From: Candidatus Zixiibacteriota bacterium
Lineage (GTDB): Bacteria; Zixibacteria; MSB-5A5; GN15; FEB-12
DNA length: 64,000 nucleotides
Assembly (NCBI GenBank): GCA_041742355.1
Contig: JBGSIV010000157.1
Coordinates: 35,446 to 99,445 of the forward strand
Direction: 5' to 3'
Shown here: one piece after another, positions 1 to 54,057 of the stretch
Layout of the letters: the number at the start of each line of letters is the position of its first letter
How positions within the stretch are numbered: position 1 is the first letter of the stretch
Notes under the pieces: model-generated
The model's input: only the letters and a program-made list of their open reading frames with translations
What the model was told of the DNA's origin: nothing
The model's database searches: none
Program-made: the position numbers and the translations under genes

Positions 1-211
1 AACCCTCGATCATGAGCATCAGCCGGTTCTGTTCGGTGATAGTGACGCGGGCCATCAGCTGAACCTGTCCATCGGCAGGCGTCAGCTGGGCATCCGTCTT
101 AAATGCCGAATTATCGGCTGGTGAATCGAGCGGCGATTTGTCGCAACCAATCAACAGGACCAGCAGGAGCAGGATCCCCGACAGAGCCAACAGGTTGACA
201 GCTTTCCTCAT
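1..211 (-). CDS. Putative lipoprotein (partial, runs off the window start)
   Basis: AGGAGG RBS then ATG at 211: MRKAVNLLALSGILLLLVLLIGCDKSPLDSP...; hydrophobic signal peptide with lipobox-like LIGC; frame open to the window edge. Confidence 0.8.
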   Translation of the reverse strand, partial: MRKAVNLLALSGILLLLVLLIGCDKSPLDSPADNSAFKTDAQLTPADGQVQLMARVTITEQNRLMLMIEG

Positions 212-268
212 AGGAGCCTCCTTGAACACTTAGAGTAACGGTTTCCCACGCCTGCTTACTTCTTGACT

Positions 269-298
269 GGCAGAGGAGGCGAAGCGTCGATCCGTTCT
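269..298 (-). promoter_or_regulatory. Putative ECF sigma promoter, copy 2 (AGAACGGA-N14-CCTCTGCC)
   Basis: Same 8+8 bp boxes and 14-bp spacer as at 5174-5203; lies about 60 bp upstream of the lipoprotein ATG. Confidence 0.65.
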
Positions 299-449
299 CG
301 GAAGGGCGAAAAAAGTGGTCAAAACTACCTCCGATTACGGAGAGGGGTCAAACCGAGGTGATTTTATCCCCGTTCTCCGGAGTAATGAAAAACGCCGGGG
401 CAGCCCGATGGCCACCCCAGCGTGGGATCCGAAGAGAGTCTCAGCCGGA

Positions 450-1859
450 CTACTGAATCATGCAGGGAAGGGTCGATTCGAAGAACAAGTATCTCACGAG
501 GATTGTCAGGTCGGCTACGTTAATCCGATCATCGCAGTTCGCGTCGGCATTGGCAAACGTATTCAACACTCCGGCCCGGAAGAGATACCCGACCAGAGCC
601 GTGAGATCCGAGACCTCAATGGTGCCGTCGGCTGTTACGTCGCCATGAGCCACGGGGTAGGCCCGCTCCAGAGCCTCTATCGGGTCGATGAGACCCGATC
701 CGAGCAGTCCTTCATAGCCTGGATTCAGGCTGTCGATACTGGTGGCGGATTGCTGCAGCAGAGTATCTATCTGCACCGCCGTGAGCGACGGATTGACACT
801 GCGGACCAGGGCAATAACCCCGGTGACCAGCGGTGCGGCGAAACTGGTGCCGTCCCACCAGGCGTAGAGCGAATCGGCGTAAGCCGAATAGATCGCGGTG
901 CCGGGTGCACAGATATCGATGCGAAGACCGTAATTCGAGAAACCGGCCTTCCGATTGGTTGAATCGAGCGCCGCCACCGCCACAGCATAGGTGCGGGAGG
1001 CCGGGAAGGGGAAGATGCTGTTGAGATCGGTCGAGTCGTTTCCGGCCGACGCCACAATGGGGATGTCCGCTTGCCGGGCAAGGCGAAGGGCCTCATCGAG
1101 GTTCTCGTCGATTCCCGTCATGCCGAGGCTCAGGTTGATGACCGACACGCTGTCGGCGATTGCCTGCAGGACCGCCGCGGCGATGGTGAAGGCACTCCCC
1201 TGTCCGGCCGAGTCGAGTACCTTATACACATTGATGTCCGCGCCGGGCGCCACCAGTTGGAGAGCGGCGGCCACGAACGTACCGTGCGCCGCACAAGAAC
1301 CCAGGCTGTCGGGCTGGGCGAGGGAGTCCTCCTCCAGGTAATCGTAGCGACTCACGATGTCTCCCGGAGCGAGGGCAAATACCGGATGGGCGATATCAAC
1401 TCCACCATCGATCAGGGCAATGGTGGTGCCCTCGCCGATGGCCAGGTCATGGGTGGCTGGCAGCGCGAGAGTAACAGCGGCCGGCTGGTCCTCAAATGTC
1501 CCGATCAGCTCCTGATCGACAAAAGGCGAACTTCGCTGAAAGCCCTCCGGCACTGCGAGGTAGTAGTTCGGTCGACAGAATTCGACCCGGGGGTCGTTGT
1601 TGATCTGCGCGGCGGTGCTCTCCGGGTTCTGGCCGTGCGGGATGACCAGCAGATAGACGTCGGTCTCGATCAGGTGCCCGCGGACAATGGTGCCGTAGGT
1701 CGCGTTGACGTCCGCAATAGACGCACCCTCGATCACGCGGCACACGACTTCCGTGGGGGAGTATCGTGGTCCGATCTCATCGGAGCCGGCGATCGCCCTC
1801 GTGGCAATGACAACCGCAACCAGCCCCGCGAGTATGGTAAATCCGTATCTTCTCTTCAT
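450..1859 (-). CDS. Secreted S8 (subtilisin-like) serine peptidase with C-terminal dockerin-like domain
   Basis: Signal peptide; catalytic triad motifs IALIDGG, AHGTFVA, GTSFAAP; oxyanion SAGN; C-terminal GDVTADGTIEVSDLTALVGYLF / DANCDDRINVADLTILVRYLF. Confidence 0.92.
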   Translation of the reverse strand: MKRRYGFTILAGLVAVVIATRAIAGSDEIGPRYSPTEVVCRVIEGASIADVNATYGTIVRGHLIETDVYLLVIPHGQNPESTAAQINNDPRVEFCRPNYYLAVPEGFQRSSPFVDQELIGTFEDQPAAVTLALPATHDLAIGEGTTIALIDGGVDIAHPVFALAPGDIVSRYDYLEEDSLAQPDSLGSCAAHGTFVAAALQLVAPGADINVYKVLDSAGQGSAFTIAAAVLQAIADSVSVINLSLGMTGIDENLDEALRLARQADIPIVASAGNDSTDLNSIFPFPASRTYAVAVAALDSTNRKAGFSNYGLRIDICAPGTAIYSAYADSLYAWWDGTSFAAPLVTGVIALVRSVNPSLTAVQIDTLLQQSATSIDSLNPGYEGLLGSGLIDPIEALERAYPVAHGDVTADGTIEVSDLTALVGYLFRAGVLNTFANADANCDDRINVADLTILVRYLFFESTLPCMIQ

Positions 1860-1865
1860 TTCATT

Positions 1866-4610
1866 TCATCCTCCCAGCGAGCCGGCGCCGTACAGACCGA
1901 AGGCAGCCCAGTGATAGGCCGAGGGGAATTCCTGCCGTGTCCGCTGTTCGGCACGCTGCAATGATATCGACAAGCATGATGTATTCAGTAGTTCGGCATA
2001 AAACCGCTGCATAAACACAGCGGTGGCCCGGTCCGAAACCGGCCAGCGGCTGGCCAAAACGTTCCGCGCCCCCATCTCCAGCAGTGCCCGGACAAAACCG
2101 GTCGACTCCTCTCCCGGCAGCGCGACTTCTTCGCCGGACCGGCAGGCAGCGAGCGTGACCAGAGCAACATTGCAGCGGCGGAGCTGGAAATCGGCCGCAA
2201 AGAGAGGACCATCCTGCAGTTGGAGCGACGAGTAGATGGGGCTCTCGCTTTGCATCCGGGCGTGGCCGGCATAGTGCCAGACGAGGTAGTCCCCTTCGGC
2301 CGGCCAGGAGGCGCGGGTCGCCGGGGCATGGACCGTGGTCCGGCCAGGGGCCAGGCACGCCAGTTGCCGCAGTTCTTCTCGGATCTGGGGCAGATCGCCG
2401 GCATCGCCTCGGAAGAGGTGGAACTCCTCCCCGGCAGGTCGACGCGATTGAGCCAGCCAGTGATGCCGGAGGCTCGGGGTTAGCACGACCGCATGCCGAT
2501 CACCCACCGCCGCACCATTATGCTCAAGCGCCTGCCACGGGAGATTAGCCAGCGGGCCGTCGGGTACGAGCACTACCGACGAGCAGGTCGAGGGAATTTC
2601 GAGTCCCGCCCACAGCCAGCCGCCCAACTCCCGCCAGACCGACTGCTCGACAACAGATACCGGACCATACTCACCGGGGCCGGCCAGAATTGCCCGCTCC
2701 ATGCAGAAACGCCATCGTTCGGCGAGGGCCTCCAGCCGCTGCACACCGCCAACATACCTCCTCGCGGCGACCTCGCCCCGATAGTGAACGAGGGCGTGGA
2801 TATCCTGCCCGGAAAAGTGGAACTGCACGACGGGATGGCCGTCGACTTGGGATGAAATGTTTGCCGCGAAGCTGTCAGCGGTCAGCAGCGAGGTGTCTTC
2901 CGCGCGATCGAGAGTCAACAGACACTCGCGCACCTCACGGTGCAGGTGCGAAATACGGCCCGGGATAGCCGCAGAATCGGTACTTCCGGCGGACCGCTGG
3001 GCTGGCGACGCGAGCCGCTGCGACAGGGAAAGCACGCGGGCCGACAGCGACGTGAGGCTTTGCCCGACCTTCTCGCGGGCGGTCCGCAATTCAGCCTCAT
3101 GCGCCCCCACATTCCAGACGCCCGCGGTGCGCGAACGCTCTGACCAGACTGCGGCAAGCAGCGGATCAGTCGGAAGATACGCTTCGACCAGACGGGTATG
3201 GGGGAGCTTGGCCACTCGGCTGTAGCGGGTTCGCAGTTCCATCGGCGGGAGCGCCGCACGCACGGTGTCAAGACGATCCGCCGCACGCTGCCAGCATGTC
3301 AGGGCCTGGGTCCGTCTCCCGGCGGCAGCGGCGGCATCCCCTTCCAGTACCTGCCATGCCGCATACAGGTGCGGCACGCAACGGACCGCCGGATTGCGGC
3401 GGAGGCGCGGCAGTGTAGCCGACGCTTGCCCCGAGGCCTCGGCCGTCCGCAGATCGCACATGGCATCCCAGAATGGCAACTGTGCTCGACTGAATTGCCG
3501 GCGCACTGTCTGCAGACGACTCGCGCCGTTCGGTTCGCCCGTATCGGCGAGGTCCAGCTGAAGGAGTTTGACGGCGCCGAGGAAACCCCGATGGCGAAGC
3601 CCGCGGAAAAGTGCCTCCGCCCGCACGGCTTCGCGACGAGCTATCTTCGCATCATGCATCCCTGCTGATGCATAGGCCGCGTAGAGATGTGCCTTGGCTT
3701 CTTCGTAGGCCAGCTTGAGTTTGTGAAATCTCCGTCCCGCCTCTTGCGCCCCTTGGTGCGCCTCGCGGTAGAGCCCGAGCTGGAGGTGAACATCTGCCCG
3801 ATCGAGCAGGCAGAGCGCGTGGCCCCGTGGATCCCCCGCCTTGCGGTAGATCGACTCGCACAACGACAGTTCCAGCAGAGCCGCATGGAACCGGCCGGTC
3901 AGCAGCCACAGCCATGCCAATCCGTACCGCGCGTCAGCTGCATCGAGCTCGTATCCGGCCTCGCCGTAAACCTGCAGCGCCAGCCGGTAGAGCGCTTCCG
4001 CCTCATCCATACTGAACAGCTGTACGAGCACGTTGGCTTGATTATAGTAGCACCGGGCCAGCGCGACCCGGTTCTCGGACTTCTCAAAGTAGTGAATGGC
4101 GCTCTCGTACAGGCGGGAAGCCCGCCGGGGATCGTCCTGCCGGTGGTACAGGTTGCCGAGATTCACCCAGGTCTGGGCCAGATCGGATTCGGCTCGAAGC
4201 TTCGAAAACGTCCGGATAGCTGCGTTGCCGTAGCGCAGAGCAGCCCGGGTATCGCCCAGGTACATGCATATGTCCACCAGCGTCCGGTCGACCCTGGCGC
4301 GAATCAACGGCTGCGCGCGGCAGAGGGCGCGAGCCTTCAGGTAATACTCGAGTGCTTTCTGGTGCGATCCGGAGAAGTGGTGCATTCGCCCGAGTGAACG
4401 GCTGGCGGTCTGGACGAGAATCGGACGGCCGCTGTGTTCCGCTCGCACGGAAAACCGCTCCGCGATCCGCAGTGCCTTCCGAATAGAGGCGCGGAATGCG
4501 TCCTGTACCAGACGGTCGCAGGCAGCGGCCAGCTCGGTATCGGCCATGCCGCCGGACGACCCAGTCCGCAGAAATCGACGCGCGGCTATGACGGTTTCGT
4601 TCTCTTCCAT
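1866..4610 (-). CDS. TPR-repeat CHAT-domain (caspase/HetF-like) protease
   Basis: N-terminal TPR-like repeats (e.g. LAQTWVNLGNLYHRQDDPRRA, LARCYYNQANVLVQL); C-terminal CHAT motifs VPDGPLANLPWQAL, HYAGHA, LAACRSG, VLASRWPVSD, YHWAAFGLYG; likely start MEENET at 4610 (ORF open from 4685). Confidence 0.9.
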   Translation of the reverse strand: MEENETVIAARRFLRTGSSGGMADTELAAACDRLVQDAFRASIRKALRIAERFSVRAEHSGRPILVQTASRSLGRMHHFSGSHQKALEYYLKARALCRAQPLIRARVDRTLVDICMYLGDTRAALRYGNAAIRTFSKLRAESDLAQTWVNLGNLYHRQDDPRRASRLYESAIHYFEKSENRVALARCYYNQANVLVQLFSMDEAEALYRLALQVYGEAGYELDAADARYGLAWLWLLTGRFHAALLELSLCESIYRKAGDPRGHALCLLDRADVHLQLGLYREAHQGAQEAGRRFHKLKLAYEEAKAHLYAAYASAGMHDAKIARREAVRAEALFRGLRHRGFLGAVKLLQLDLADTGEPNGASRLQTVRRQFSRAQLPFWDAMCDLRTAEASGQASATLPRLRRNPAVRCVPHLYAAWQVLEGDAAAAAGRRTQALTCWQRAADRLDTVRAALPPMELRTRYSRVAKLPHTRLVEAYLPTDPLLAAVWSERSRTAGVWNVGAHEAELRTAREKVGQSLTSLSARVLSLSQRLASPAQRSAGSTDSAAIPGRISHLHREVRECLLTLDRAEDTSLLTADSFAANISSQVDGHPVVQFHFSGQDIHALVHYRGEVAARRYVGGVQRLEALAERWRFCMERAILAGPGEYGPVSVVEQSVWRELGGWLWAGLEIPSTCSSVVLVPDGPLANLPWQALEHNGAAVGDRHAVVLTPSLRHHWLAQSRRPAGEEFHLFRGDAGDLPQIREELRQLACLAPGRTTVHAPATRASWPAEGDYLVWHYAGHARMQSESPIYSSLQLQDGPLFAADFQLRRCNVALVTLAACRSGEEVALPGEESTGFVRALLEMGARNVLASRWPVSDRATAVFMQRFYAELLNTSCLSISLQRAEQRTRQEFPSAYHWAAFGLYGAGSLGG

Positions 4611-5152
4611 GTCAGCCCGGTTAGTTGAATGCTTCGCGTGGCCGAGTGCAGCGAGAGCCGACGGGGCGGACGGACTGACTGCCATTGATAGACACCCAAA
4701 TCGTCGGCCGAGACGACGTCGCCGTCGGCCTGAAGGACAAACGGCTCGTCGCCGGAGAACTGCGCCACGAACGACCAGCCCCTTGGACGTTTCTCGGCGC
4801 GCAGTTCAAACGTCAGATCATCGGCCCTGAAGTGAACCCGACGGTTCGCTTCGATCGCGGGTCCGCGAACCCCAACCGGCACGGGCGACGCCCACGAGTC
4901 GAAAACCAGGTTCGCCACGAGATCGACCAGGCGTTCCACGGCCGATTGACGGCCGATAGCTTTGGCCGCCTTGATCACCGCCGCTGGCGGTACCGGCAGC
5001 GGATCCCGGCCCACTACTGGGTGAAACCTGGCCAGCACCTCGTACGCCTCACGGCATTCCTCGCAGCCCGCGAGGTGGGGATGGTCTGAGCCGGCGCCGG
5101 TCCGCGCCAGGCGAATCAGCTCTCTCCGGCTCAAGTGCTTTGCGCGACTCAT
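4586..5152 (-). CDS. Putative soluble zinc-finger anti-sigma factor
   Basis: HLAGCEEC fits the ZAS HxxxCxxC motif near the N-terminus; directly downstream of the ECF sigma gene; no transmembrane helix visible; overlaps the CHAT gene start. Confidence 0.7.
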   Translation of the reverse strand: MSRAKHLSRRELIRLARTGAGSDHPHLAGCEECREAYEVLARFHPVVGRDPLPVPPAAVIKAAKAIGRQSAVERLVDLVANLVFDSWASPVPVGVRGPAIEANRRVHFRADDLTFELRAEKRPRGWSFVAQFSGDEPFVLQADGDVVSADDLGVYQWQSVRPPRRLSLHSATRSIQLTGLTWKRTKPS

Positions 5153-5173
5153 TTCATCTCCCTTCTCTGTACA

Positions 5174-5203
5174 GGCAGAGGGAGCATCGGTTACTTCCGT
5201 TCT
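5174..5203 (-). promoter_or_regulatory. Putative ECF sigma promoter, copy 1 (AGAACGGA-N14-CCTCTGCC)
   Basis: Straddles the sigma gene stop codon, just upstream of the anti-sigma RBS/ATG; boxes and spacing identical to 269-298. Confidence 0.65.
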
Positions 5204-5760
5204 TCAATGTATCCAAGACCGATCAGGATTTCCTTCAGTCGGGTGAGGCAACGGCGACGTTTGGCTCCGAGCGTATTAGGGGAGAGGTCAAAATCGGACG
5301 CAATGTCGTCGTAAGATCGCTCCTCGTCCGCAAAAAAGAAGGCGTACAACAACTTACGGCACGGTTGATCTATCCGCGCCAGCGCCGTCTCAAGGGTCGC
5401 CTGCAACTCCAGAATTTCAAAGTCTTCCTCGGGATTAGGCCGATCATCGGCCTTGGCGCCGAGACAGTCGTCGGACTGGTTACGGGCTACTCGATGGCGG
5501 AGGCGGATAGCCTCCCGCTTGGCGGTAGTGACCAGCCATGAGGAGATGCGCGACGCATCCTGAAGGCGGTAGCGGTGCTCAAACAACGCCGTCCACGTGT
5601 GTTGAAAGACATCGGCAGCGTCCGCATCTGTAAGTCCGACCTGACGGCAAAAGGCAAAGACCAGGGATTTATAGCGATCGACGAGCTCTTCCCAAGCCTT
5701 CGGGTCGTTGATCAGAACCCGTTGCCACAACTGCTGATCGGTCAGTTCGGATCGTTTCAT
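5191..5760 (-). CDS. ECF-type RNA polymerase sigma-70 factor
   Basis: Region 2 (AWEELVDRY, DAADVFQHTW, SWLVTTAKREA) and region 4 (SYDDIASDFDLSPNTLGAKRRRCL); likely start MKRSEL at 5760. Confidence 0.92.
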   Translation of the reverse strand: MKRSELTDQQLWQRVLINDPKAWEELVDRYKSLVFAFCRQVGLTDADAADVFQHTWTALFEHRYRLQDASRISSWLVTTAKREAIRLRHRVARNQSDDCLGAKADDRPNPEEDFEILELQATLETALARIDQPCRKLLYAFFFADEERSYDDIASDFDLSPNTLGAKRRRCLTRLKEILIGLGYIEERK

Positions 5761-6099
5761 AGGGTCATATATACCTGTTGCTCCTCGTTGCAAGCTAATG
5801 TAATTCCGGCAGCGCGCAATGGGATTCTTCGGGCTGGATGGTCCTGCGGGCATATCTGCGGCAGGCTCTGGTTACGATCGGGTAAGTGCGCCGGACACGG
5901 TGCCGCTATGGCAATTGGTCGGCCCATCTCCTCCCCTCTACAATGTAGTTTTGCCTTGGATCGGCATCAATTAGACCCTTGGCGCGCCGATAATTAGGAT
6001 ATCGGTTCGAGATGACGGATTCTGCTCCAGGAAACCGAACTTCCTCGGATCGACAAGAGAACAGAAGGGTGACAATCGTACGGATCCGATGGGTGAATT

Positions 6100-6879
6100 A
6101 TGGTCAGTGTCCAGCGTCGTATCGCAGTGCTCGGTGCTCTTGGAGCGGTGATCGCCCTCCTGCCGGCCGAATTGTGCGCACAAGTCCCGGATGATCTCGT
6201 CAGTGACCCTGCGCCCCAGGTGGTGGTCGGAGTCGAGACTGAACTGGCTTCCCGATACCTCGATCGGGGTTTGACCTACAGTGACGGCGCGGTTTCACAG
6301 ACCTCGCTCTGGGTCAGCGCGTTCGGACTGACCGGGTCGATCTGGACGAACTACGAATTCGACGCGGAGATGGGAACACCATCCCTGAACGAAGTAGATA
6401 TCGCTTTGGCCTGGTCCGGCTCGCTGGGACTCTGGGATCTCGAACCGTCCGTGCAGACCTTTTCGTATCCCGAGCAACCGGACGTTCCGTGGACAGCCGA
6501 GATCTTGCTCTCCCTGACATGCAATCTGCCGGTTGTGCAGCCCTACGCCGTATATCGCCTCGATGTCAAGGAATACGCGGGCGCCTGCTTTGGCGAATTG
6601 GGCGTGCAAACCGGTTGGGCACTTCGAGAGAATCTCGAGCTGGGCGCCCAGGCATCACTCGGCTGGGGTTCATCCGAATTCAACCAAGCCTATCTTGGTA
6701 AAGCGTTCTCCGGGCTGCAGGTGGCAATGCTCGATGCCGGGGTGCTGTGGAACGCCATCGGGGGGCTCTACGTGCGTCCTCACTTGGTCGTGGCAGCGCT
6801 GCTCCGTCGGGATGCCCGTGAGCTTGTCGAGGACCCCTCACCGCTGCAGGCCGGGCTGGTTGTCGGAGGCGAATTTTGA
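6100..6879 (+). CDS. Exported putative outer-membrane beta-barrel protein (TorF-like)
   Basis: Signal peptide; SRYLDRGLTYSDGAVSQ and NEVDI motifs; C-terminal Phe; stop overlaps the next ATG. Confidence 0.6.
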   Translation: MVSVQRRIAVLGALGAVIALLPAELCAQVPDDLVSDPAPQVVVGVETELASRYLDRGLTYSDGAVSQTSLWVSAFGLTGSIWTNYEFDAEMGTPSLNEVDIALAWSGSLGLWDLEPSVQTFSYPEQPDVPWTAEILLSLTCNLPVVQPYAVYRLDVKEYAGACFGELGVQTGWALRENLELGAQASLGWGSSEFNQAYLGKAFSGLQVAMLDAGVLWNAIGGLYVRPHLVVAALLRRDARELVEDPSPLQAGLVVGGEF

Positions 6880-9470
6880 TGGTCAGTGCAAAGACGCAGA
6901 CAAAGCTGATCGTCCTCATGGGAATGGTGCTGGGAGTGTTTCTCCTGGGCATGGTTTTCATGCACCAGGTGGGCAAGGACCAGGCTGCGCTCCTGTCACA
7001 GGACAAAGCACGAGAGAAAACTCTGGCGCTGGAACAGCTGGTTCGGCTGTTAAGCCGGCCGCTCCAGACGCTGTCATACGACTACACGTTCTGGGACGAG
7101 ATGGTGGAATTCGTCGCCACCCGTGACAGCGCCTGGGCATACGACAATGTACACATAGGCCTCCAAACGTACGAAACCGATGCCGGGTGGGTATTCGCTC
7201 CGACCGGCGAGACCGTCTACACGGCGACTGCCGATGGGGTGGACGGAGTCATCGACGACAGCATAGTATTGGCCAGCATTCGGGACGCTATGGACCAAAG
7301 CTGGTTCAACCACTGGTTTATCATGGCGCCTTTGGGCGTGGTCGAGCTCTACTCAGCCCCCATTCAACCATCCAACGACAACGATCGCAAGACCGAGCCG
7401 CGAGGCTATTTCGTTGTGGCAAAGATATGGGATACCGACTATCTGGCCGAGATCGAGAGGGCAATCGACGCAGAGATTGCCGTCAAGCCAGTCTCCTCCG
7501 AAACACGCAGTGCGTTTGAGCACGCCGGCTCGACCGACCGGCTCGTATTCACGCACACACTTCCGGGTCTTCACGGCAAACCGGTAGCGAGGCTGATCTG
7601 CGAAGCGGAGAACACGCTCTACACAGCTTTTCGGACAGCCGAGTTCAACCGGATGATCTACCTTGGCGTGTTCTGCCTGTTTGTCCTGCTCATCATGGTA
7701 GTGGCGCTCCATTACTGGCTGGGCCAGCCGCTGCACCAGGTGATGCTCAGCCTGCAGACCGGCAGTGACGAGTCAGTCCAGGAGTTGTACCGGGCCGGCG
7801 TCGAATTTGGCAAGATCGGCGAATTGATCGGGGCATTCCTGGAGCAGAAATCGGACCTTGAGGTCGAAATTCTCGAGCGGCGGCGGACGGAAGAGGCTGT
7901 GCGCAGCCGGGAGGGCCTTCTCCGGGCCACCCTGGAGTCGACGGCCGACGGCATTCTGGTGGCCAGTTGTGATGGCCGGGTGACCCACCGAAACGAGAAA
8001 TTTCTCGAGCTGTGGAGAATACCGAAAGAACTGGCTAATGACGCCGACGACGAATTGTTGATCGGCTACGTGCTCTCGCAGCTGAAGGACCCGACAGCGT
8101 TTATCACAAAGGTCACCGCCCTGTACGCCAGCTCGGACGAGTCATTCGACACCCTGGAGTTCCTCGATGGACGAGTCTTCGACCGGTACTCCTGTCCGCT
8201 TGCACAAGAGGGCCGCGTCGTGGGTCGGGTATGGAGTTTCCGCGACGTGACCCAGCAGCGCAAAGCCGAAGAGGCCCGGCTGCAATTGCAGGAGAGCCTC
8301 GAGCGAGCGCAGCGGATGGAGTCGCTCGGACTGCTTGCAGGCGGCGTCGCCCACGACCTGAACAACATCCTCGGACCGGTCGTCGGATACTCCGAACTGC
8401 TGATGCGTGACGTGAACGAGGATCCCAGGATCCTCGGACGCCTGCAGAAAATCAACCGCTCGGCCCAGGAAGCAGCGGCGGTCATTCAGGATCTTCTCGC
8501 CCTGGCGCGACGGGGCCGTTACGAGATGCACCCGCTCAATATCAACCAGGTGGTCAATTCGTATGTCGAATCGGTTGGCTGCGAAAAGCTCCGGGAACGG
8601 CACCCCGACATCCGCCTCAACTTAGAACTGAATCCCGCCGCCCGGCCCATCTTGGGATCGGAGGTGCACCTCGGTAAAGTCGTCATGAACCTCGTGACGA
8701 ATGCGTTCGAAGCGATGCCGCTCGGGGGATGTCTGACCATCGTGACGGAGCAGGCGCACCTCGATCATCTCTACGGCGGGTACCGGGATATCGAGGCCGA
8801 CGACTACGTCATCCTGCGCGTGAAAGACACGGGAACCGGAATCGCAAAGGAAGACATCGCGAAGATTTTCGAACCGTACTTTTCGCGCAAAACCATGGGG
8901 CGGAGCGGAAGCGGGCTGGGGTTGTCGATCGTGTACAGCATCGTGAAGGACCACCACGGATACTACGATATCTTGTCGGAAGTGGGCAAAGGTACTGAGT
9001 TCATCCTGTACTTCCCGGCATCCGAGAAGACCCCCGCGGCTGCCGCGGACAAGCAGGACATTCAGGGCGGGACCGAGCGCGTGCTGGTCGTCGACGATCG
9101 CCCGGAGCAACGTGAAATGGCCTGCGAGATCATTGCCAGCCTGGGTTACTCGGTGCAGACGGCGGAGAACGGCCACCAGGCTGTTGAGATCATGACGCGC
9201 GAGACGGTGGACGTGATCGTACTCGACATGATTATGGAGCCGGACTTCGATGGTCTGGACACCTATCGTGAAATCCTCAAGATCTGTCCGAGGCAGAAAG
9301 CCGTGATTGTGAGCGGGTTCTCCGCCACCGATCGAACTCAGCAGACACTGGATCTCGGCGCCGGCCGCTACGTGCGCAAACCGTACAGCGTGGAGGAACT
9401 GGCGCGGGCATTGCGGGAAGAACTCGACACTGCCCGGAGCGTGATGCAAGACTCGCCTGCACCAGCATAG
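6879..9470 (+). CDS. Hybrid sensor histidine kinase/response regulator (CHASE4-PAS-HisKA-HATPase-REC)
   Basis: CHASE4-like DYTFWDEMVEF between two TM helices; H-box GGVAHDLNNIL; N, G1 and G2 boxes (NLVTNAFEAM, DTGTG, GSGLGL); REC VVDD...LDMIM...KPY. Confidence 0.92.
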   Translation: MVSAKTQTKLIVLMGMVLGVFLLGMVFMHQVGKDQAALLSQDKAREKTLALEQLVRLLSRPLQTLSYDYTFWDEMVEFVATRDSAWAYDNVHIGLQTYETDAGWVFAPTGETVYTATADGVDGVIDDSIVLASIRDAMDQSWFNHWFIMAPLGVVELYSAPIQPSNDNDRKTEPRGYFVVAKIWDTDYLAEIERAIDAEIAVKPVSSETRSAFEHAGSTDRLVFTHTLPGLHGKPVARLICEAENTLYTAFRTAEFNRMIYLGVFCLFVLLIMVVALHYWLGQPLHQVMLSLQTGSDESVQELYRAGVEFGKIGELIGAFLEQKSDLEVEILERRRTEEAVRSREGLLRATLESTADGILVASCDGRVTHRNEKFLELWRIPKELANDADDELLIGYVLSQLKDPTAFITKVTALYASSDESFDTLEFLDGRVFDRYSCPLAQEGRVVGRVWSFRDVTQQRKAEEARLQLQESLERAQRMESLGLLAGGVAHDLNNILGPVVGYSELLMRDVNEDPRILGRLQKINRSAQEAAAVIQDLLALARRGRYEMHPLNINQVVNSYVESVGCEKLRERHPDIRLNLELNPAARPILGSEVHLGKVVMNLVTNAFEAMPLGGCLTIVTEQAHLDHLYGGYRDIEADDYVILRVKDTGTGIAKEDIAKIFEPYFSRKTMGRSGSGLGLSIVYSIVKDHHGYYDILSEVGKGTEFILYFPASEKTPAAAADKQDIQGGTERVLVVDDRPEQREMACEIIASLGYSVQTAENGHQAVEIMTRETVDVIVLDMIMEPDFDGLDTYREILKICPRQKAVIVSGFSATDRTQQTLDLGAGRYVRKPYSVEELARALREELDTARSVMQDSPAPA

Positions 9471-52968: not shown

Positions 52969-53827
52969 CGGAGGGACGCCCTCTGTGAAGGGCTTGTTGA
53001 ATAACCCCGAGCGCGGCTGTTGGCAGTCATTGCGAGGAGCGAAGCGACGAAGCAATCTCTCATCGGACCAGCGGCTTGGCCGGAGGAGAGATTGCTTCGC
53101 TGCGCTCGCAATGACTATTCAGGGACTTTTTCAACACTCCCTAAATGGTGGGCCACCCTCGTGCAGATGGTGGCTCTTTGCCTCCCTCGTAATCATCCTC
53201 CTCCTCTGCTCCTGCAACGGGCCGCACCGGACAGTCGTACAATCGGTCTGTTTCGGCGACCACTGCTTCCAGGTGATTGACTACTGCTACCCCGGCAACG
53301 AACCCGACCGCTGCGGCACAGAGGTCTACCGTGTCGACGACACGGGCGCCACAGCCTTTGAGGACGGCGACTTGCTGTTCCGACACCACCTGATCCGCCT
53401 GTGGCCGCTGACCACGCTGACCGACTCGCTCCTGAGAATCCCGATTGTCTACGCCGACTGGCCCGATCCGGAGATTATCGTGCCGATTAATCTGGCACAC
53501 CAGACGATCGATTCGGTGCTGACGCCGGATCGATCACGGGTGTTGTGGTCGATGACACAGGGGAGGTTCGCGGTGAGCACGCACCCGATGGATAGCACTC
53601 ATCGGACAGACACCGTGGGCGACGGGGTAGCGCTGTATATCAGCGATATCAACGAAGCGTTTCACCACCGGACCGTGCTGTTCCCGGGAGCCGAATCGGT
53701 GATGATGAGGTTCGAGGATGAATACACGCTGATTGTCTCGGCGCGGTGGGCGGAGTTGCCGAAAAGTGTCTTCCGATTTCGGATCGCGCTGTGGCGGGTT
53801 GAGCCTGGGGAGATGCGGTTGTACTAG
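52946..53827 (+). CDS. Hypothetical lipoprotein-like protein; ORF reads through a palindromic element, true start uncertain
   Basis: Open frame from ATG 52946; internal RWWLFASLVIILLLCSC signal/lipobox-like segment followed by about 210 aa. Confidence 0.55.
   Translation: MDVQIRSIGGTPSVKGLLNNPERGCWQSLRGAKRRSNLSSDQRLGRRRDCFAALAMTIQGLFQHSLNGGPPSCRWWLFASLVIILLLCSCNGPHRTVVQSVCFGDHCFQVIDYCYPGNEPDRCGTEVYRVDDTGATAFEDGDLLFRHHLIRLWPLTTLTDSLLRIPIVYADWPDPEIIVPINLAHQTIDSVLTPDRSRVLWSMTQGRFAVSTHPMDSTHRTDTVGDGVALYISDINEAFHHRTVLFPGAESVMMRFEDEYTLIVSARWAELPKSVFRFRIALWRVEPGEMRLY
52989..53142. mobile_element. MITE-like element: terminal inverted repeats enclosing an RPE/REP-like palindrome (copy 1)
   Basis: AGGGCTTGTTGAATAA...TTTTTCAACACTCCCT ends; core GTCATTGCGAGGAGCGAAGCGACGAAGCAATCTC...GAGATTGCTTCGCTGCGCTCGCAATGAC. 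Confidence 0.7.
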
Positions 53828-53895: not shown

Positions 53896-54057
53896 GCTTG
53901 GGGACTGTTGAAAAACCCGGAAAGCAGTCATTGCGAGCGCAGCGAAGCATTCTCTCCCCTGTCCAAGGCTCGGGCATCAAGAGAGATTGCTTCGTCGCTT
54001 CGCTCCTCGCAATGACTGCCGGTAGTCGTACCCGGGGTTCTTCAACAGGCCCCAAGC
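53896..54057. mobile_element. MITE-like element (copy 2, inverted relative to copy 1)
   Basis: GCTTGGGGACTGTTGAAAAACCCGG...CCGGGGTTCTTCAACAGGCCCCAAGC ends; core arms are reverse complements of the copy-1 arms. Confidence 0.7.

Follow-up and report, generated by a model that had tools for sequence, protein, structure and literature searches.

How is a sigma factor of the extracytoplasmic function (ECF) class controlled when the genes behind it encode a small soluble protein, a tetratricopeptide repeat (TPR)-CHAT protease and a secreted subtilase, and what does it switch on? The question is raised by one end of a stretch of 64,000 nucleotides from a Candidatus Zixiibacteriota bacterium (GCA_041742355.1, contig JBGSIV010000157.1, positions 35,446 to 99,445), hereafter the window. 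Five genes lie there in one orientation, as an earlier note made from the letters alone had observed: those of the sigma factor, of a 188-residue protein that we call the partner, of the TPR-CHAT protein, of the S8 subtilase and, cut by the window's edge, of a DUF5666 lipoprotein (Table 1). Our answer, to which we give an even chance, is a cytoplasmic switch that is free of cas genes and resembles the ECF54 group of sigma factors, in which the CHAT protease would cut the partner after Arg96 and so free the sigma factor.

We found that the cassette recurs in relatives of this bacterium. Eighty regions were fetched at the best full-length CHAT matches in 285 genomes of the phylum, a selected set in which some genomes appear twice; with the window locus this makes 81 loci, and here, as in all counts below, related sequences are not independent. 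The order sigma-partner-CHAT-S8 is kept in 79 of the 81, one exception lying at a contig edge and the other lacking the S8 gene, so the neighbourhood conservation that the earlier note had proposed to examine is borne out. CHAT and S8 genes are adjacent in 80 of the 81 loci, and a lipoprotein gene lies nearby in 43. A scan seeded with the sigma factor instead returned 79 loci, 74 close and 5 distant; among the close ones with enough downstream DNA, 54 of 56 carry all four genes and two lack S8, and the five distant loci carry no cassette. The partner gene is present in 74 of 208 genomes that are at least 90% complete. The closest relatives of the sigma factor come mostly from records titled Zixiibacteriota, uncultured Ignavibacteria or just bacterium, and the loci fall into two subgroups, one with a short S8 protein (53 loci) and one with a long S8 protein bearing large C-terminal extensions (26 loci). 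Plasmid searches returned sigma or CHAT relatives and no full cassette in the seven regions examined.

The first four genes had been described as tightly coupled. The longest open reading frame (ORF) of the TPR-CHAT gene starts at 4685, whereas the homologs agree with a start at the ATG at 4610; this makes the gene overlap that of the partner by 25 bp, a spacing more frequent among homologs than any other. The two genes overlap in nearly all homologous loci, and 6 bases separate CHAT from S8. The 38 bp between the sigma and partner genes contain part of a promoter, so that the four genes are not simply one unit.

This promoter was recognized through the lipoprotein genes. A bipartite search of their 43 upstream regions returned TG(A/T)ACGA, followed 16-17 bases on by CTCTG(T/C), in 40 of the 43 and approximately 70-110 bases upstream of the lipoprotein start. 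When trained on these 40 regions, the promoter matrix gave an out-of-sample match in 51 of 53 short-S8 loci vs. 0 of 26 long-S8 loci, placed across the sigma stop codon or immediately behind it and directed towards the partner gene; the two misses among the short-S8 loci scored 12.8 and 8.0. The long-S8 loci possess a related, looser motif, G(G/T)ACTAAA..CTC(T/C)TT, mostly in the same place, and their sigma region 2 differs. In the window, the sites at the sigma stop and before the lipoprotein gene score 17.4 and 15.3 bits, respectively, or 14.3 and 11.9 bits with the two loci of this genus held out, while the maximum among 150 random stretches of the window was 9.1. Counted as an exact pattern across the 208 genomes, the motif occurs at 129 sites, some of them training sites, in the 74 genomes with a partner gene, vs. 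28 in the 134 without; at a wrong spacing the respective counts were 16 and 28. One genome that is 98% complete and in which no partner gene was found (G121) holds three exact promoter sites and represents an exception to this co-occurrence.

In front of the sigma gene the situation is different. The best ECF motif in 78 upstream regions scores 11.0 and none reaches 15 bits, which led us to reject autoregulation of the sigma gene through this motif; an expectation-maximisation search of 78 sigma upstream regions yielded a weak TTG..TATA(T/A)T consensus at scattered positions. The 300 bp before the S8 and CHAT starts do not hold the ECF motif either (maxima 10.4 and 5.9). Comparative sequence evidence strongly suggests that the sigma factor recognizes this motif and, through it, drives the lipoprotein gene as well as the partner-CHAT-S8 unit, but not its own gene. 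This agrees with the induction of the S8 protease and the lipoprotein that had been supposed for this locus, the former as part of the unit that starts with the partner.

The predicted output is broader than these two proteins. Across the 81 loci, 136 sites score at least 17 bits: 47 precede partner genes, 40 lipoprotein genes, one a CHAT gene, seven no ORF, and 41 other ORFs, four of which are partner genes missed by start-picking. Eighteen of the remaining ORFs were scanned; six encode CHRD proteins with a cupredoxin-like N-terminus and sometimes a dockerin, two S8 proteases, one a DUF5666 protein, six proteins of no family, and one each a trypsin-like lipoprotein, a glucose/sorbosone dehydrogenase and a multihaem cytochrome c. 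Nearly all predicted targets begin with signal or lipoprotein peptides, judged by eye. Genome-wide, the matrix gave 12 sites at 15 bits vs. 5-13 at wrong spacings, which is not above background, and 6 vs. 1-5 at 18 bits; thus, only the top sites are credible. With a looser pattern the counts were 23 vs. 10-18. As the predicted output includes the inhibitor and the protease themselves besides other exported proteins, the one-way relay of the earlier note gives way to a feedback loop. Further candidate members of the regulon are a 1037-aa secreted protein (C216:3230, minus strand), a 361-aa exported protein with CxxCH (C95:23493, minus), a 362-aa lipoprotein whose site resembles the window variant GAACGG..CTCTGC (C87:18864, minus), and a site with no assigned ORF (C166:6290, plus).

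The partner carries a zinc-type motif, HLAGCEEC (H26, C30, C33), and a further ligand-type residue, H6. Its AlphaFold2 model (pLDDT 89.6, pTM 0.60) comprises helices at residues 9-18, 25-29 and 31-46, followed by a linker and, beginning at residue 76, a beta-sandwich; confidence is low in the loop of residues 91-100 (pLDDT 66). When its profile was run against PDB sequences, the best match was the zinc-binding anti-sigma (ZAS) domain of the anti-sigma factor RsiW (E 0.0085); the top Foldseek rows for the model were the anti-sigma factor ChrR, a weak match (E 0.017). Structural look-alikes in the atlas belong to clusters without a name, drawn from Acidobacteriota, Zixiibacteriota and Chloroflexota; in one of them 27% of the members carry zf-HC2. 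The C-terminal domain returned middling Ig-like fold matches only (best Z 7.1) and no family could be shown. The partner has no Pfam hit over the cut-off; zf-HC2, which had been expected, does not match this copy and matches 8 of 71 homologs weakly. A single-sequence search found two homologous proteins only, and a profile word search added no distant relatives. Neither the partner nor the TPR-CHAT protein has a transmembrane helix or signal peptide (maximal 19-residue hydropathy of the partner 1.19; 0 of 77 homologs above 1.6).

On these grounds the RsiW-like ZAS N-terminus makes the partner a putative anti-sigma factor. With the soluble ZAS anti-sigma factors (ChrR, RsrA, and the cytoplasmic domain of RsiW) it shares a three-helix N-terminus with a His and HxxxCxxC. 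It differs from them in an added Ig-like C-terminal domain with an invariant Arg loop, in a co-encoded dedicated protease and in zinc ligands that can be dispensed with. The soluble ZAS protein of the earlier note therefore holds as to the motif and the missing transmembrane helix, but the zinc motif is not constant: HxxxCxxC occurs in 64 of 77 close homologs, in 98 of 150 database representatives (some of them incomplete), and in none of 30 Actinomycetota partners. The zinc site is, judging from these alignments, dispensable in the family. Arg96, in contrast, is invariant (77/77 close homologs, 150/150 database representatives, 30/30 Actinomycetota), and is kept even in partners that lack the zinc ligands; of 15 columns compared, no other is identical in both phyla. 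The residue that follows it is mostly Gly, Asp, Ser or Ala. As for Arg96 where CHAT is missing, three of the four Actinomycetota genomes with a CHAT-less sigma locus have a close CHAT elsewhere, and in the fourth, a draft, none was found.

The zinc motif, found in 47 of 50 partners of the short-S8 group, could also point to a redox or zinc switch, with the partner as a sensor of the RsrA/ChrR type that releases the sigma factor on oxidation or zinc loss, and with CHAT and S8 as outputs acting on other proteins. The RsiW and ChrR matches would suit this explanation, as would the cupredoxin and cytochrome c genes among the predicted targets. We consider it improbable, since Arg96 stays where the zinc ligands are missing (13 of 77 close homologs and all 30 Actinomycetota partners), and the conserved gene overlap and a modelled dock tie the partner to the protease.

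The CHAT dyad, read as intact from the letters, is indeed so: H783 (HYAGHA) and C823 (LAACRSG) are kept in 81 of 81 homologs. The model of the TPR-CHAT protein (pLDDT 88.9, pTM 0.85) shows a long TPR array followed by a pseudo-protease and the CHAT domain; the best fold match of this model is human separase (TMq 0.53-0.54, E 1.9e-16), then Csx29 and DdvA; a phmmer search of PDB with the CHAT domain alone gave nothing useful. A complex model of CHAT residues 60-914 with partner residues 50-188 scored 0.71, vs. 0.00 for the best of three controls; among solved complexes 116 of 157 attain the mark for this score, among mismatched pairs 2 of 215, counts that are only rough here, as own alignments were used. 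Between runs at least 89% of the contacts are the same, the partner has a pLDDT of 71-72, and the structure prediction that had been proposed for this pair came out docked. In the model, the C-terminal beta domain of the partner docks on CHAT helix 622-642, with confident contacts of residues 627-642 and 653-657 to partner strands 116-131 and 152-156; partner residues 92 and 95 also belong to the confident interface, as does CHAT residue 857, which lies in the loop that follows the catalytic Cys. A search of PDB sequences with the partner profile, taken to E 10, brought up no Csx30, which makes it less likely that the model recalls the solved Csx29-Csx30 complex.

Would such a protease cut after arginine? 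HetF cuts PatU3 at R117↓S118 (PMC9457339) and separase cuts after Arg, in unstructured regions (PMC10317155). Craspases, however, are described to cut after Met or Leu (PMC11506125) and a gasdermin-linked protease cuts after Leu; hence, Arg is not a rule of the family. Two acidic residues conserved in both phyla, E746 and D860, sit at the positions of the Arg-binding acids of MALT1 (PMC4357240) and could serve likewise, if the topological comparison is right.

The switch that we favor would then work as follows. The sigma factor is perhaps made from a housekeeping-type promoter and would be held by the ZAS-type three-helix N-terminus of the partner, as its homology suggests, while the beta-sandwich of the partner is predicted to dock on the TPR-CHAT protein. 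A cytoplasmic ligand, most simply a peptide or protein bound by the TPR array, would activate the protease, which, to judge from conservation, would cut the partner after Arg96 in its exposed loop. The undocked N-terminal fragment would be lost or degraded, as proposed for Csx30, and the sigma factor freed. Very probably, given the strong comparative evidence, it would read the TG(A/T)ACGA-N16/17-CTCTG promoters: the one at the end of its own gene would yield more partner, protease and S8, and the others would yield DUF5666 lipoproteins, CHRD/cupredoxin-dockerin proteins, further proteases and multihaem cytochromes. Because more inhibitor but not more sigma factor would be made, the switch would have a built-in reset.

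Several observations weigh against this account. Of the 51 junction sites, 49 keep a single frame with respect to the sigma ORF and just 26 have a -10 element that lies entirely beyond the stop, so that their conservation may owe something to coding constraint. On the other hand, the position of the site shifts between -71 and +5, counted from the stop, and non-coding DNA elsewhere holds the same motif. D85 and R104 of the partner are as invariant as R96 in close homologs (Actinomycetota, 25/30 and 24/30), so that R96 could be structural. The loss of the zinc ligands noted above, accompanied in many Actinomycetota partners by a much shortened N-terminus, weakens the anti-sigma assignment for the family. 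The position of the aspartate that binds the P1 Arg in separase, D2151, which corresponds to K670 of Csx29 (PMC9729208), aligns to A864 in this CHAT, and Arg specificity is thus unsupported by that residue; E746 is also present in Csx29, which cuts after Leu or Met. In the complex output, R96 is absent from the confident contacts and partner residues 92 and 95 are not paired with 857. Finally, a sigma factor that induces its protease and partner together fits an off-switch equally well.

In such an off-switch the partner would be an adaptor that binds the sigma factor through its N-terminus and delivers it as the target to CHAT, to which its C-terminus is docked, and the sigma factor would induce both proteins to end its own response; Arg96, for which securin and the prodomain Arg of gingipain offer comparisons, would be an inhibitory or positioning residue in the active site. 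The promoter at the sigma stop, which would drive partner and protease but not sigma, and the stable modelled dock are both consistent with this, and there are precedents: proteolytic control without an anti-sigma factor has been proposed for ECF54 (PMC8999054), PCaspase cuts a sigma factor directly (bioRxiv 2023.06.23.546230), and an uncleaved inhibitory Arg is known in gingipain. Yet, the flexible loop with its invariant Arg and a small residue behind it corresponds to the R↓S site cut by HetF (PMC9457339), securin inhibits by lacking the Arg (PMC10317155), an RsiW-like N-terminus alone is enough for sigma inhibition, as established for ZAS proteins, and the off-switch gives no account of what turns the sigma factor on. 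We regard it as rather unlikely. Both it and cleavage of the partner after Arg96 fit the data better than the redox switch above or the two explanations that remain, a protease cascade and a defence system.

The cascade concerns the S8 protein, which had been annotated as a secreted S8-dockerin protease; its signal peptide, fervidolysin-type prodomain, Peptidase_S8 (E 1.2e-38) and Dockerin_1 (E 8.5e-8) domains are all recognizable, and the triad is intact (D151 79/79, H192 79/79, S339 77/79, the two others being incomplete sequences; oxyanion N274 79/79). CHAT might act on this protein, or on another exported precursor, before export, the sigma-partner pair being regulated separately. The adjacency of the two genes in 80 of 81 close loci and the presence of both in 25 of 39 Actinomycetota loci speak for such a link, and a CHAT-to-protease cascade exists in SAVED-CHAT/PCaspase. 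We nonetheless judge this highly improbable: the S8 protein has a signal peptide and a prodomain of its own, there is no invariant Arg among its columns conserved at 95% (R/K213, in 77 of 79, lies within the catalytic domain), and the modelled dock belongs to the partner. In the long-S8 subgroup (L082, L094, L096, L097, L108, L111) the subtilases reach approximately 2200 aa and add beta-helix, Ig and secretion-tail domains to the same S8 core.

The earlier note had allowed that similar neighbourhoods may already be catalogued, and this is the case. The supplement of PMC7826278 describes ECF54, 100% from Actinobacteria, as having a carboxypeptidase-regulatory-like protein always at +1, plus a subtilase and a TPR-CHAT protein, with the promoter GTATCAG/CTCC and no putative anti-sigma factor; according to a review, proteolytic control without one has been proposed (PMC8999054). 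Of the sigma domains sought here, region 2 is matched and region 4 only below the cut-off (E 0.046). When the sigma profile was run against 251 Actinomycetota genomes, 37 matched at E 1e-25 or better, and the 39 loci found there include CHAT in 27, S8 in 27, both in 25, and a recognizable +1 protein in 30; the nine others were left out of the +1 comparison as no candidate aligned. The published ECF54 motif occurs in these loci at 46 sites with spacing 15-19 vs. 1-11 at five other spacings, which marks them as ECF54-type; in no more than 6 of the 39 is it 60 bp or less away from the sigma stop. A de novo motif search at these junctions returned a coding signal and was set aside as uninformative. 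Homology between the partner and the Actinomycetota +1 proteins is shown by hhalign (97.2%, E 3.6e-11; reversed control 0.46%). One of these +1 proteins (L224) matches CarboxypepD_reg below the cut-off (E 4.5e-4), and this copy of the partner has no Pfam match to that family.

In a FastTree analysis of 129 sequences the close homologs form one clade (81 sequences, support 0.79) and the 39 Actinomycetota sigma factors another (0.14); their joint clade has support 0.96 vs. seven other ECF sigma factors of this genome, the inner support being weak. By this phylogeny our sigma factor appears to be a sister lineage of the ECF54-type sigma factors, neither nested among them nor a strict member, and the cassette, on comparative grounds, would work like ECF54 and share its origin without strict membership. 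Common to both are an ECF sigma factor with a homologous +1 protein, a subtilase and a TPR-CHAT protein, a related promoter and a proposal of proteolytic control; here, in contrast, the phylum and the sigma clade are different, the promoter is TG(A/T)ACGA/CTCTG, related to but different from the published one, most +1 copies carry a zinc-finger N-terminus, and the gene order is fixed. Known already is the ECF54 gene combination and its proposed proteolysis; new are the ZAS-like N-terminus and R96 of the partner, the modelled dock and the promoter. In the literature searched, in which most subscription papers, including the original description of ECF54, were outside reach, we found neither an experimental study of the cassette nor an assignment of the +1 protein as anti-sigma factor or protease substrate. 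Streptomyces plasmid sigma factors of the wider family (L118:6962-7654, L120:7001-7534) lie inside biosynthetic gene clusters, with no +1 partner or CHAT nearby.

The cassette was also said to be independent of CRISPR, and we observed no CRISPR-like array or repeat family in the window and no match to Cas1 or RAMP in the genome, which is 93.8% complete (positive controls matched). Of 53 recurrent neighbours run through PADLOC, each standing for a cluster within 489 neighbour ORFs, five gave matches, all of them generic (TPR, AAA and caspase fold). A role in anti-phage defence or cell death would make the cassette a Craspase or DdvA-DdvS equivalent that stands alone, with a phage protein sensed by the TPR array: both characterised TPR-CHAT/ECF systems are described as defensive (PMC10028731, PMC11506125), the structural likeness to Csx29 and DdvA is apparent, and the spread is patchy (74 of 208 genomes) with up to three close paralogs. 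Against the two negative searches and predicted targets that are nearly all exported, we hold a defence role to be very unlikely; the output looks like cell-surface remodelling or extracellular proteolysis, not phage defence.

The nearest characterised relatives differ from the cassette in several respects. In Craspase (Csx29/Csx30/CASP-sigma; PMC10028731) the C-terminal domain of Csx30 is reported to bind CHAT, the cut falls in a flexible loop and the N-terminus binds sigma; it shares with the present locus a TPR-CHAT protease, the docking layout predicted for the inhibitor and ECF output sites in its own locus. Here, however, the searches above showed no Cas7-11 or CRISPR, the partner has 188 aa vs. 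565 aa in Csx30, the predicted targets are exported proteins, and the predicted site is Arg96, whereas Csx29 cleaves behind Met or Leu, no residue being essential. The DdvA-DdvS system of Myxococcus xanthus (PMC11506125) likewise joins ZAS, TPR-CHAT and an ECF sigma factor in one circuit, with release by CHAT proteolysis proposed; DdvA is one transmembrane protein with periplasmic TPR-CHAT that needs RseP, and DdvS is described to control a CBASS-CRISPR island, while here, where no protein-database search aimed at longer fused forms was made, ZAS and TPR-CHAT are separate soluble proteins. In HetF-PatU3 of Anabaena (PMC9457339) and separase-securin (PMC10317155) a protease of the CHAT/separase fold cuts a regulatory protein after Arg and general degradation follows, as predicted for the cassette, but HetF has a transmembrane segment, periplasmic TPRs and no sigma factor, and the S1 aspartate of separase is not conserved here. 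Other caspase/ECF neighbourhoods have been described (PMC8195603).

It is possible, though we put it at somewhat less than even, that across several phyla ECF54-type cassettes work in one way: a separase-like protease docks an unrecognised anti-sigma factor and cuts it at an invariant Arg, and the freed sigma factor turns on an exported regulon and its own reset. ECF54 was described without an anti-sigma factor, and the control of its sigma factors has been in question from then on; if our reading holds, that factor would be the product of the overlooked +1 gene, and the caspase-like enzyme encoded next to it would be the protease dedicated to it. For most bacterial TPR-CHAT proteins no substrate is known, and the cassette names a candidate, with Arg96, a docking helix, a promoter and a family that extends to Actinomycetota. 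The system would parallel regulated intramembrane proteolysis with soluble parts throughout, would be a case of caspase-like proteolysis in ordinary gene control instead of immunity, and may represent the sort of module out of which the circuits of Craspase and DdvA were built. With its trigger identified, this soluble switch of three parts could find a use in synthetic biology.

Table 1. Features of the cassette, in window numbering; all five ORFs are on the minus strand.
Feature	Position	Strand	Description
ECF sigma gene	5191..5760	-	189 aa; Sigma70_r2 E 5.7e-10; apparent sister lineage to ECF54-type sigma factors
Soluble partner gene (putative anti-sigma)	4586..5152	-	188 aa; ZAS-like three-helix N-terminus, Ig-like beta-sandwich C-terminus; homolog of ECF54 +1 protein
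Arg96 codon of partner	4865..4867	-	loop FDSW..GVR↓G; predicted scissile P1 residue, from conservation
TPR-CHAT caspase-like protease gene	1866..4610	-	914 aa; CHAT E 3.7e-37; His783/Cys823; cytoplasmic
Secreted subtilase gene	450..1859	-	469 aa; signal peptide, prodomain, S8, dockerin
DUF5666 lipoprotein gene, 5' end	1..211	-	continues past window; whole gene L001:9009-10211, 400 aa
Candidate sigma70-like promoter of sigma gene	5766..5793	-	TTGCAA-17-TATATG; tentative
ECF-type promoter over sigma stop codon, facing partner	5175..5204	-	-35 (GAACGG) within 5204-5195; -10 CTCTGC 5180-5175
Second ECF-type promoter, before lipoprotein	270..299	-	-35 within 299-290; -10 CTCTGC 275-270
Terminator-like hairpin and T-run after S8 gene	388..423	-	predicted from fold

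The genome contains three close paralogous cassettes (C157, C92, C251) and a divergent fourth on C227. On C251 (2081-5402, L251) the paralogous sigma factor is accompanied by a partner without zinc ligands, and strong promoter sites are found both at the junction and before a divergent gene for a secreted protein with a cupredoxin-like domain, four CHRD domains and a dockerin. The fourth cassette (C227:293-3177, L256) consists of a sigma factor, a +1 protein without zinc ligands (FDS..GIR↓P), in which the Pro after the Arg would make an unusual cut site, and S8; its likely CHAT is encoded on C80 (10546-13314, L258), and the end of C80 and the start of C227 overlap by 141 bases, a palindromic repeat. 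Sister cassettes of this type with all genes are present in L054/L165 and L195. We rejected an apparent sigma-partner fusion in L195, where the assembly contains a stretch of N. At C232:6477-10059 lies the gene of another CHAT protein, which begins with a signal or lipoprotein-like peptide; the gene before it encodes a transmembrane zinc-finger anti-sigma-like protein, and the arrangement resembles a split DdvA layout. In five loci (L066:2972-3850 and four related ones) a lipoprotein with a caspase (Peptidase_C14) domain is encoded beside the cassette.

In the window itself, positions 6100-9470 of the plus strand hold a divergent gene for a MipA-like outer-membrane protein that overlaps a gene for a CHASE4-PAS hybrid histidine kinase, a pair that is not conserved near the cassette in relatives. 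A palindromic repeat resembling repetitive extragenic palindromic (REP) elements is present in two copies (53048-53099 and 53943-53994) and is similar to the repeat at the contig ends of C80 and C227.

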